Position numbers and translations under genes: made by a program
Assembly (NCBI GenBank): GCA_039000165.1
Contig: JAWBTW010000001.1
Location: forward strand, 30,525-94,524
DNA: 64,000 nucleotides
DNA from: Candidatus Aenigmatarchaeota archaeon
Lineage (GTDB): Archaea > Aenigmatarchaeota > Aenigmatarchaeia > CG10238-14 > SCSR01
Direction: 5' to 3'
Shown here: piece by piece, positions 12,174-27,384 of the stretch
How positions within the stretch are numbered: position 1 is the stretch's first letter
How the letters are laid out: every line of letters begins with the position of its first letter
Notes under the pieces: model-generated
Told to the model about the DNA's origin: nothing
What the model saw: the letters and a program-made list of their open reading frames with translations, nothing else
Database searches by the model: none

Positions 12174-12872
12174 TCAAATTATATTGTAAAGTCTTAGAAC
12201 GATTTGTTTCGAATCTGGTTCAAACAAGCCGTATTTTTCAAGGTTTGAGGAATAAGAAATGAAAGAATCTTCATAATCTTCAACTTTTTTTCTAAACTCT
12301 TCTATCTTATTTTCTTTTATCCATTTTCCAATCTTAATTTTTTCTCCTTCAAAGCAGCCTGGACAAAGCTCTATTTCCACATACTTTTTATCAACATGTA
12401 AAAAAGGATATTTCTTACAAACTCCAGGCCTAACAGGATAAATTTCGCATAAGTTTGAATTGCTCAGGAAAATGCATTTACCGTCAGGCTTTTGTTTAAG
12501 AGTTAGAATATCATCAGAAACTTCAAAGTAGTGCTTGAAGGTTTGTTTTCTATCAAGGCCGATAAAAGAACAGATTTTTTCAAATTCTTCTGGAAGAACA
12601 GAAACTTTCCTTTTGATACAGCAATCGCCATCTTTTATACAATTGAAGTAAAAAAATTCTTCTTTGTTCAAAATGAGGATTGGGAGGAAAAATTCTCCTG
12701 TGTATTGCAATTTTATAAGTTTATCTCTTCCGTAAACTTTTGTTACAAGCTTACAAGCTTGTATAGCATACTTGTTTCTTGAAAAGATTGCTGGGTCATT
12801 TCGAAAAAGGCCTAATATAGAAAGAGTTCTTAGGATTTCTTCTGGTTTTATCACGACTTCAAATTTTTCCAT
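12174..12872 (-). CDS. YkgJ / CxxCxxCC cysteine-cluster protein
   Basis: CIKDGDCC, CIFL...CEIYPVRPGVCKKYPF. Confidence 0.8.
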   Translation of the reverse strand: MEKFEVVIKPEEILRTLSILGLFRNDPAIFSRNKYAIQACKLVTKVYGRDKLIKLQYTGEFFLPILILNKEEFFYFNCIKDGDCCIKRKVSVLPEEFEKICSFIGLDRKQTFKHYFEVSDDILTLKQKPDGKCIFLSNSNLCEIYPVRPGVCKKYPFLHVDKKYVEIELCPGCFEGEKIKIGKWIKENKIEEFRKKVEDYEDSFISYSSNLEKYGLFEPDSKQIVLRLYNII

Positions 12873-12930
12873 AATGAAATTTTAGAAAAAAAGCTTTTAA
12901 GATTATAGTAACTCAGATAACTAAGTTCAG

Positions 12931-13075
12931 CGCCGAGGCTGGGATTTGAACCCAGAAGGGGCAAAGCCCCACCAGCTTTCTCAACTCACCTCCGACTCAT
13001 CATTAGTCAGAGTCAAGCCATTTTATCATTGAAAGACTCAAGGCTGGCGCGTTAGCCAGGTTCCGCCACCTCGGC
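12931..13075 (-). tRNA. tRNA-Ser(UGA) with 59-nt intron at canonical 37/38 (12978..13036)
   Basis: acceptor GCCGAGG/CCTCGGC + discriminator G, anticodon stem CCAGC/GCTGG, TGA at 13038-13040, long variable arm GGGGC/GCCCC, T-loop TTCAAAT; central splice helix CUUG/UGAG. Confidence 0.95.
12978..13036 (-). ncRNA. Putative C/D-box sRNA encoded by the tRNA-Ser intron
   Basis: C-like ATGATAA (13023-29), 12-nt guide, D' CTGA (13007-10), C' ATGATGA (12997-13003), 12-nt guide, D-like TTGA (12981-84). Confidence 0.7.
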
Positions 13076-13170: not shown

Positions 13171-13530
13171 ATGAGTGCTGTTTTACAAGCTTTAAGTATA
13201 TTGCTTTTGTTTCTTGGAGAAGCTTTAGCGATTTATTCTGAGATTGCTGGCGCAAACAAAGTTTTAAATGAGAATAAAATATCAAGCGAAACATTCCTTT
13301 GGTTTTTTCTTTTGATAACTATCGCAGGATTACCTTTAATAGCTGGTTATTTTTTGGGAATAATTGCTTTTAAAAACATTTGGATAGTAAGCGTAGTTTC
13401 AATAGTTTCTATTTTGATAGTAGAACCAATTTTAGCCTATTTAATTTTTAAACAATTCCCAACTTATGGAGCGTTAATTGGTTTAATTCTAGGTTCAGTT
13501 GGTTTGATTATAACCTTAGTTGTAAAGTAG
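13171..13530 (+). CDS. Small 4-TM membrane protein (SMR/EamA-like)
   Basis: four hydrophobic helices. Confidence 0.6.
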   Translation: MSAVLQALSILLLFLGEALAIYSEIAGANKVLNENKISSETFLWFFLLITIAGLPLIAGYFLGIIAFKNIWIVSVVSIVSILIVEPILAYLIFKQFPTYGALIGLILGSVGLIITLVVK

Positions 13531-27309: not shown

Positions 27310-27384
27310 TGCGCCAGCCGGGATTTGAACCCGGGTTACGAGCTTGGAAGGCTCGTGTCTTAGACCAGGCTGGACCACTGGCGC
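27310..27384 (-). tRNA. tRNA-Gly(UCC), no intron, CCA not encoded
   Basis: GCGCCAG/CTGGCGC acceptor, CGAGC-CTTCCAA-GCTCG anticodon arm, GGTTCAAATCC. Confidence 0.96.

Follow-up and report, generated by a model that had tools for sequence, protein, structure and literature searches.

In eukaryotes, intron-hosted small nucleolar RNAs (snoRNAs) that guide the modification of ribosomal RNA (rRNA) are released from the introns of unrelated host genes. The archaeal case described here concerns a stretch of 64,000 nucleotides (nt), referred to as the window, from contig JAWBTW010000001.1 of a Candidatus Aenigmatarchaeota archaeon (assembly GCA_039000165.1), which contains a tRNA-Ser(UGA) gene whose intron has the layout of a box C/D small RNA (sRNA) with two guides complementary to 16S rRNA. 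Whereas such snoRNAs are carried by spliceosomal introns, this intron is of the endonuclease-spliced bulge-helix-bulge (BHB) type, and the host is either a tRNA gene or, in relatives, the gene of the target rRNA.

The closest described counterpart is sR13 of Nanoarchaeum equitans, an organism reported to be without the checkpoint enzyme RsmA/Dim1. According to Seistrup et al. (2017, NAR 45:2007, PMC5389701), the D' guide of sR13 covers 16S positions 1405-1415 and its D guide positions 1531-1540, and Am1408, Am1409, and Am1534 were measured with matrix-assisted laser desorption/ionization mass spectrometry (MALDI-MS) and RiboMeth-seq; the authors proposed that sR13, as a substitute for the RsmA checkpoint, delays helices 44 and 45 in their folding. 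The RNA in the window is the same kind of guide, so that its dual target is one already published. Both RNAs are dual guides directed to the same two 16S stretches, both place A1408 opposite the fifth guide nucleotide counted from the box (N+5), and both occur in hosts without RsmA/Dim1. The N. equitans gene, however, stands on its own, its D boxes have the consensus CUGA, and its guide gives A1534 at N+5 in the 16S tail, whereas the window sRNA occupies a tRNA-Ser(UGA) intron (a 16S intron in relatives), has C1535 at N+5, and carries a compensated AUGAUAA/UUGA kink-turn (k-turn).

Guides housed in archaeal tRNA introns have been described for euryarchaeal pre-tRNA-Trp, in which the intron (Haloferax; Pyrococcus sR50) is reported to direct the formation of Cm34 and Um39 in its own tRNA (PMC7994747). 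The window sRNA shares with it the position of a C/D RNA in a BHB intron at 37/38 and the mutual exclusion of guide fold and splice motif, but it is without complementarity to its host and is aimed at 16S rRNA. In N. equitans, the 66-nt intron of elongator tRNA-Met was reported as a stable C/D-like RNA (Randau 2012, PMC3491384); it likewise represents a non-Trp tRNA intron with C/D elements in a DPANN archaeon and is known to accumulate, but its box C is mutated, tRNA and guides are different, and that report assigns it no target. Additionally, the 16S and 23S rRNA genes of Thermoproteales hold BHB introns (PMC4496867; PMC3608112), described as empty hairpins or as carriers of homing-endonuclease open reading frames (ORFs), and their possible yield of functional noncoding RNA was left open in a 2013 review (PMC3608112). 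The sRNA copies of relatives resemble these introns in that they lie in predicted protein-spliced 16S introns whose removal restores the 16S; here, however, what they carry is a guide RNA whose targets lie in the exons on either side. No C/D guide in a tRNA-Ser intron or an rRNA intron was found in the literature searched, which did not cover subscription journals, and relative to that literature the housing of an sR13-type guide in tRNA-Ser and 16S introns is new.

The tRNA-Ser(UGA) intron and its 16S targets

The intron sequence given in the initial annotation was recovered letter for letter when the minus strand was re-read, and the complete dual-guide C/D layout assigned to it holds: the order is U CUUUCA, AUGAUAA, AAUGGCUUGACU, CUGA, CUA, AUGAUGA, GUCGGAGGUGAG, UUGA, GAA, with two guides of 12 nt and a 3-nt spacing between the internal boxes (Table 1). 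The 16S and 23S rRNA genes of the source genome (G000; 783 kb, roughly 33% G+C, 91.6% complete) were located with Rfam models, the 16S gene lying at C8:6332-7881 on the minus strand, and E. coli numbers were assigned from an alignment with an E. coli 16S, A1492/A1493 and A1518/A1519 taking their expected places as landmarks. The comparisons cover the 118 genomes of the order, including families f1 to f5, and the 371 genomes of the class, 253 of them outside the order.

The D' core UGGCUUGAC forms nine contiguous Watson-Crick (WC) pairs with 16S G1405-A1413 through guide positions 2-10 from D', which sets the fifth position opposite A1408 in the 5' strand at the top of helix 44, within the decoding site. 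The D core GGAGGUGA forms eight WC pairs with U1532-C1539 in the anti-Shine-Dalgarno (anti-SD) tail through positions 2-9, with C1535 at N+5, in agreement with the complementarity to the anti-SD tail suggested from the sequence at the outset; the duplex extends to 10 bp in families f2, f4, and f5. The target originally suggested for the D' guide, near the 5' end of 16S, was rejected, because it offers only seven WC pairs and one G.U pair, leaves the three guide positions adjoining D' (1-3) without a partner, and is thus weaker and out of register compared with the nine pairs at 1405-1413, which is also the site that fits the covariation in relatives. The earlier observation that neither guide matches the host tRNA exons was reproduced, the single 'self' match of the D guide falling inside the intron.

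The splice motif at 37/38, evaluated with a BHB geometry script, comprises an outer helix of 7 bp, 3-nt bulges AG/U and AA/A, and a central helix CUUG/UGAG in which 4/4 positions pair, two of them as G.U; the inner helix begins only past one mismatch, so the motif is of the relaxed type. Since this central helix includes the UGA of box D, the splice motif excludes the C/D k-turn and vice versa, and the guide fold therefore becomes possible only once the intron is excised; A58 and A59 of the intron likewise double as the 3' bulge of the splice motif. The predicted k-turn has a stem of U4-A59, U5-A58, and C6-G57 and a loop of A7, A8, and U9, followed by G10.A56, A11.G55, U12.U54, and A13-U53. 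The tandem G.A positions are retained in AUGAUAA and UUGA (G3A4 in each), and the two departures from consensus, G6 to A in box C and C1 to U in box D, compensate each other, as an A-U pair replaces the usual G-C pair. This pair covaries over 56 distinct family members: it is A-U in f1, G-C in f4 (AUGUGGA/AUGAGGA with CCGA/CUGA, the box register in this family being read by hand), and a single f2 copy (AUGAACG with GUGA) has C-G.

A relaxed dual-guide C/D scan of both strands of the whole 783-kb genome returned two candidates, both located in tRNA-Ser introns, against a mean of 0.15 in 20 locally shuffled genomes, of which 3/20 gave one candidate and 0/20 gave two. The genome encodes fibrillarin (283.6 bits) and Nop5 (231.4 bits) in adjacent genes, L7Ae (109 bits), all above the Pfam cut-offs, and the splicing endonuclease EndA (95.1 bits).

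The second candidate of the scan is the 53-nt intron of tRNA-Ser(CGA), whose gene lies outside the window at G000 C14:6986-7124 (minus strand) and reads G37/UGA AUGAAGA AGCCUGAGGUAU CUGA AUA AUGAUGA UACUUGAAUU CUGA GAA/A38. Its D' core GAGGUAU is kept in three congeners, in contrast to its D guide, and its best rRNA match, in 23S, comprises eight WC pairs and one G.U pair. Pairing of its D guide with tRNA T-loops is possible, with C56 at N+5, and Trm56 (PF01994) has no match in the source genome, which is 91.6% complete; guidance of Cm56 by this intron was nevertheless set aside as weak, the D guide not being conserved within the genus.

Table 1. Features of the tRNA-Ser(UGA) gene and its intron in the window (positions counted from the first letter of the window)
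Feature	Position	Strand	Remarks
tRNA-Ser(UGA) gene	12930..13075	minus	class II, one intron at 37/38; ARAGORN with introns allowed
5' exon	13037..13075	minus	last base G37; C32-G35 (CUUG) supply the 5' strand of the 4-bp central splice helix
BHB intron, box C/D sRNA	12978..13036	minus	59 nt
Terminal box C variant AUGAUAA (G6 to A)	13023..13029	minus	read from the sequence
D' guide AAUGGCUUGACU, core UGGCUUGAC	13011..13022	minus	12 nt; target 16S G1405-A1413
Box D' CUGA	13007..13010	minus	read from the sequence
D'-C' linker CUA	13004..13006	minus	3 nt; freely variable in relatives, takes hairpin insertions
Box C' AUGAUGA	12997..13003	minus	read from the sequence
D guide GUCGGAGGUGAG, core GGAGGUGA	12985..12996	minus	12 nt; target 16S U1532-C1539
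Terminal box D variant UUGA	12981..12984	minus	UGA also contributes to the splice motif's central helix
GAA	12978..12980	minus	3' strand of the 3-bp terminal stem with intron U4-C6
3' exon	12930..12977	minus	first base A38

Guide-target covariation and distribution among relatives

Copies housed in 16S genes provide guide and target on the same DNA, and 46 such loci were entered into the comparison, of which 41 were readable for the D' guide and 4 were dropped as mis-anchored. Among the 41 copies, 24 show 9/9 WC pairs and 10 show 8/9, the 5'-terminal position being unpaired; three have one G.U pair, three have one bulged A, and the last is the copy of genome G113. At 16S position 1410, A is matched by a guide U in 5/5 genomes (G069 contig C31, G028, G008, G009, and G081), and the single genome with C1410 (G113) has G, while the 35 copies facing G1410 have C (32 copies) or the wobbling U (3 copies), without a clash. 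Three more variant copies contain an extra bulged guide A, two of them in A1410 genomes. Furthermore, within genus g31, C1409 in the 16S of G045 is matched by G in the tRNA-hosted guide of its congener G048, a correspondence drawn across congeners. From loci L146 (G045:C17) and L148 (G045:C8:12900-13600), the g31 16S has the tail GGAUCCCUCUCAG, and G045 also contains a canonical C/D sRNA that is free-standing and has different guides (AUGAAGA AUGCCGCCGCAU CUGA UUA AUGAUGA GAUGGAGUACCU CUGA).

The clearest example comes from the 16S tail of G113, which has CACUACAAA instead of CACCUCCUU and is matched by the D guide UUUGUAGUG over 11 bp; in wider context, the 16S end reads GGAUCACUACAAAAA against the usual GGAUCACCUCCUU, and the matching D guide is AUUUGUAGUGAU. 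At this f5 locus (L142, G113:C101:3610-4510), the CCUCC core of the anti-SD is replaced in the 16S tail, and a second short hairpin insert is present at 1520/21, after GGGAAC and before GUGCGGCUGG. Across the readable copies, tail pairing is 8/8 in 37/40, a figure that is partly circular, as the best match to the tail served to locate the D guide. Because kin share changes, the covariation amounts to at least two independent events and at most about seven. The guides thus track changes in 16S, in line with the initial reading of the intron as a trans-acting guide, and comparison of these sequences makes it very likely that the selected function is for the two guides to pair with the two 16S stretches.

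The distribution of the sRNA was followed in several ways. A BLAST search of 60 relatives with the whole pre-tRNA, a query not biased toward the guides, gave full-length matches in four families as well as intron-only matches; the intron was matched at 23 loci, of which one is truncated where its contig stops, and in the printed sequences all of them keep both guide cores, and the flanks and the D'-C' linker vary. An exact pattern occurs in 60/118 genomes of the order at 62 sites, with 0 hits for a reversed-pattern control, and a sequence-only model built from 56 distinct copies extends this to 83/118 genomes, including 30/34 of the high-quality ones. In the class, the exact pattern is found in 62/371 genomes, of which 2/253 lie outside the order, and a pattern relaxed at 1409/1410 in 47/371, with 1/253 outside the order. 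A scan of one genome per species (185,579 species) returned 44 exact-pattern loci, most of them titled Candidatus Aenigmatarchaeota; among them are the N. equitans Kin4-M chromosome (L170), two Undinarchaeota records, and two Altiarchaeota records, and these five copies are free-standing genes with consensus CUGA boxes. From its guides, the N. equitans locus appears to be sR13. Common descent of the window sRNA and the N. equitans gene is likely but falls short of proof, since the shared parts are mostly dictated by conserved targets.

Conservation of the boxes, which had been proposed as a check, was found for the internal pair in nearly all copies: in the alignment of pattern-selected copies, D' and C' are invariant or nearly so, the D' being partly fixed by the pattern as CYGA, and a copy recovered without the pattern (L136) has AUGA as D'. 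The D'-C' linker has gained hairpins of approximately 20-40 nt in L128, L130, L134, L135, L137, and L139, with boxes and guides unchanged.

The source genome resembles N. equitans in its lack of RsmA/Dim1, the PF00398 matches in it being only partial (27.5 and 23.2 bits) and corresponding to PCMT and GCD14-type methyltransferases. By hand count, a strong PF00398 match (E <=1e-15) is present in 1/118 genomes of the order against about 162/253 in the rest of the class, and the one exception in the order (G069) has 6% contamination. A strict correlation of the sRNA with RsmA loss was discarded, because RsmA-less families outside the order (f22-f26, f31, f35, and others) match neither of the two patterns.

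Housing in tRNA and 16S introns

In 80 genomes, 82 sRNA copies were located, 36 in the tRNA-Ser intron and 46 in predicted protein-spliced 16S introns. The copies at 37/38 of tRNA-Ser(UGA) are distributed over f1 (14, including one truncated at the end of a contig), f2 (3), f3 (1), f4 (16), and f5 (2). Those in 16S genes occupy 1492/93 (11 copies; 10 in f1 and one outside the order), 1499/1500 (11 copies, f1), 1513/14 (23 copies; 14 in f1, 7 in f5, one in the contaminated bin G069, and one outside the order), and 1520/21 (one copy, f1); the f5 copy of G113, counted at 1513/14, was placed by the script at 1511/12 and is ambiguous. The sRNA is single-copy in 78/80 genomes, two copies being present in one 1.7-Mb bin and in one bin with 6% contamination. 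The 16S insertion sites, 1492-1521, fall within 30 nt, between the targets of the two guides, and in mature 16S the D' target strand pairs with 1488-1496.

All 46 of the 16S copies have 3-4 of 4 pairs in the central helix at junctions that restore an uninterrupted 16S like that of G000, and an inner helix of 2-13 bp, with none in the ambiguous G113 copy. These values come from junction-constrained BHB searches, in which the junction with the best motif was picked among up to 8 equally good ones; an unconstrained search was abandoned, as it yielded mostly spurious long-range solutions. Examples of the motifs are (GGGC)UA/A ... (GCCU)AA/A at 1492/93, (GUCG)CC/A ... (CGAU)AA/A at 1499/1500, (GCCG)UA/A ... 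(CGGU)AA/C at 1513/14, and (GGGA)AC/A ... (UCCU)AA/G at 1520/21. As the sites lie at the decoding adenosines, in the linker of helices 44 and 45, and in helix 45, the inserts must be removed for a working ribosome. In L067, L069, L081, and L086, a stretch GGCGAC GCCC downstream of 16S can pair with GGGCUAAGUCGCC (1487-1499) in a BHB-like geometry and may be part of a 16S processing stem.

Housing can differ between close relatives. A 3.1-kb contig with a Hadarchaeum title (L187), which is probably mis-binned, contains a 16S 3' region (compared after splicing) and spacer that are approximately 96% identical to those of G000, and its sRNA resides in a 1492/93 intron, whereas that of G000 resides in tRNA-Ser.

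In the window, the host gene (C1 c[43454,43599] in G000 coordinates) was missed by default ARAGORN and by Rfam at gathering scores, which detected the tRNA-Gly at 27310-27384 alone. ARAGORN with introns allowed reported tRNA-Ser(tga) with a 59-nt intron at the canonical position 37/38, and a local Rfam scan gave a tRNA match (RF00005) of 42.3 bits with a 62-nt insert. Further 'Ser(tga)' calls on contigs C6 and C2 carry CUUAAG loops and, by this anticodon loop, look like tRNA-Leu(UAA), so the gene in the window is the single tRNA-Ser(UGA) of the genome. It lies in an ORF-free gap flanked by ORFs 12174..12872 (minus) and 13171..13530 (plus). The intron load of G000 is high, and intron-bearing tRNAs on C2, C3, C6, C8, and C9 are mislabeled by ARAGORN with introns allowed, for example tRNA-Leu(UAA)-like genes as Ser(tga) and class I tRNAs as Ser(cga) or Ser(aga). 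A second intron, directly upstream of the anticodon stem, interrupts tRNA-Ser(UGA) in G096 and some f4 genomes (L038, L039, L040, L045, and L072), and ARAGORN then mislabels the gene tRNA-Ile or tRNA-Thr.

Proposed function, alternatives, and implications

It is probable, taking all steps together, that the excised intron functions as a dual-guide small ribonucleoprotein (sRNP) on 16S rRNA, with roles in methylation and in assembly. In this mechanism, the splicing endonuclease would cut pre-tRNA-Ser(UGA) at the relaxed BHB to give the tRNA and the 59-nt intron, the latter probably circularized. Within the freed intron, the terminal C/D boxes would form the k-turn and D'/C' a k-loop, after which L7Ae, Nop5, and fibrillarin would bind. 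The sRNP would then act in trans on nascent 16S, with the D' guide directing 2'-O-methylation of A1408 and the D guide, on the anti-SD tail, that of C1535. While bound, it would keep both 16S strands off their mature partners, as a late assembly step like that proposed for sR13. The sequences show the anatomy of the intron, the protein genes, the conservation, and the covariation of guide and target, and we infer excision, stability of the intron, its circularization, methyl transfer, and the assembly role. A search for RNA runs containing the locus returned none; contig joints skipping 50-53 bases in four runs have other letters between their two sides, belong to tRNA-Ser genes of other organisms, and are uninformative on splicing. 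Methylation of A1408 is likely, because D'/C' are conserved, the enzymes are encoded, and N. equitans carries the measured modification. In the 16S tail, methylation is less certain, because the N+5 position shifts among 1533, 1534, and 1535 and f5 is without the GA of the terminal D box.

Several observations weigh against the proposed function. In G000, the D duplex has only 8 bp, and shuffled guides equal the best score in 77/300 cases for D' and 184/300 for D, with G.U allowed and this genome taken alone; single-genome complementarity is thus not significant under these settings, and the case for the targets rests on the relatives. Both terminal boxes depart from consensus, and the intron matches none of the Rfam C/D families at gathering score, the full-length match of snoPyro_CD (RF00095) to 12978-13033 reaching 21.9 bits (E 0.012) against a gathering score of 45, with weaker sub-threshold matches to sR2 and sR5. 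As Rfam C/D families are lineage-specific, this shortfall lowers membership in those families and not in the C/D class. For the naked intron, folding predicts an 8-bp hairpin, CUCUGACU/AGUCGGAG, at -15.9 kcal/mol, which occludes D' together with the first part of the D guide and would need to open. Pairing is imperfect in G098 (C1533 mismatch), in G017 and G097 (terminal C1539 mismatch), and in G026 (1-nt bulge), and the D-guide region of G048 is not complementary to the 16S tail of its congener. The anti-SD site itself varies, being C1535 here and, by N+5, C1533 in the Undinarchaeota and Altiarchaeota copies, while A1534 was measured in N. equitans and C1533 is stated for I. hospitalis in the same report (PMC5389701). 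Lastly, the terminal D box has no GA (UUAA, UAAA, UAAG) in family f5 and in G006, which suggests that for the D guide it is pairing rather than methylation that is conserved.

The last two points lead to the strongest alternative, namely that the sRNA acts by pairing only, as an antisense placeholder or assembly chaperone that masks the decoding-site strand and the anti-SD up to a late stage of maturation, without methyl transfer at one or both sites. The copies of f5 and G006 fit it well, since both guides are still conserved where the GA is lost, as do the lineage-specific N+5 positions in the tail and the fact that the 16S introns sit exactly at the mature partner of the D' target strand; moreover, retardation of folding by sR13 is what Seistrup et al. 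themselves propose (PMC5389701). We nevertheless consider pairing without methylation unlikely, as the internal D'/C' boxes are conserved in nearly all copies, fibrillarin and Nop5 are retained in a 0.78-Mb genome with just two C/D candidates in the scan, and methylation at 1408 and 1534 is reported as measured for the N. equitans counterpart. A cis-acting guide of the tRNA-Trp type, methylating its own pre-tRNA-Ser or other tRNAs, would have its precedent in that intron-borne guide (PMC7994747), but it is highly improbable here: the host exons offer no complementarity of 8 bp or more, the best tRNA matches are scattered and mismatched around N+5, the guides follow changes in 16S and not in tRNAs, and 46/82 copies are housed in 16S. 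An ordinary spliced spacer with boxes and complementarities by chance, which an AT-rich genome, imperfect C and D boxes, and weak single-genome target statistics might have favored, is scarcely credible and effectively refuted by the comparative data, given the excess of C/D candidates over the shuffles, the conservation of the sRNA over five families and its presence in other DPANN lineages, and the covariation both with 16S and inside the k-turn.

The proposed trans-acting sRNP on 16S also bears on how the guide reached its different hosts. We infer, tentatively and with more doubt than confidence, that the guide steers its own intron: the excised, probably circular sRNP would dock by both guides on nascent 16S, and the intron would repeatedly have been reverse-spliced into the 30 nt separating the two targets and fixed via a DNA copy, the sRNP serving as a late 30S checkpoint wherever it is housed, in an order devoid of RsmA/Dim1. 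If true, such guide-steered insertion would explain the four 16S sites and the exchange with the tRNA-Ser intron among close relatives.

The compensatory changes, including the wholesale rewriting of tail and guide in G113, provide sequence-level proof of sR13-type pairing with the decoding site and the anti-SD, and this pairing holds throughout a DPANN order which, like Nanoarchaeum, is without the near-universal RsmA/Dim1 checkpoint enzyme. On a practical level, default tRNA finders miss the tRNA-Ser(UGA) described here, and the 16S genes of relatives are lengthened by introns of 83-161 nt. In this genome, a trans-acting rRNA guide would be delivered by a tRNA intron, and since the only tRNA-Ser(UGA) and the guide share one transcript, tRNA splicing and ribosome maturation would be coupled. 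A guide that alternates between a tRNA intron and four sites in its target gene constitutes a natural experiment on the mobility of endonuclease-spliced introns, and it bears on the origin of intron-dwelling guide RNAs, a question usually discussed only for eukaryotic snoRNAs.

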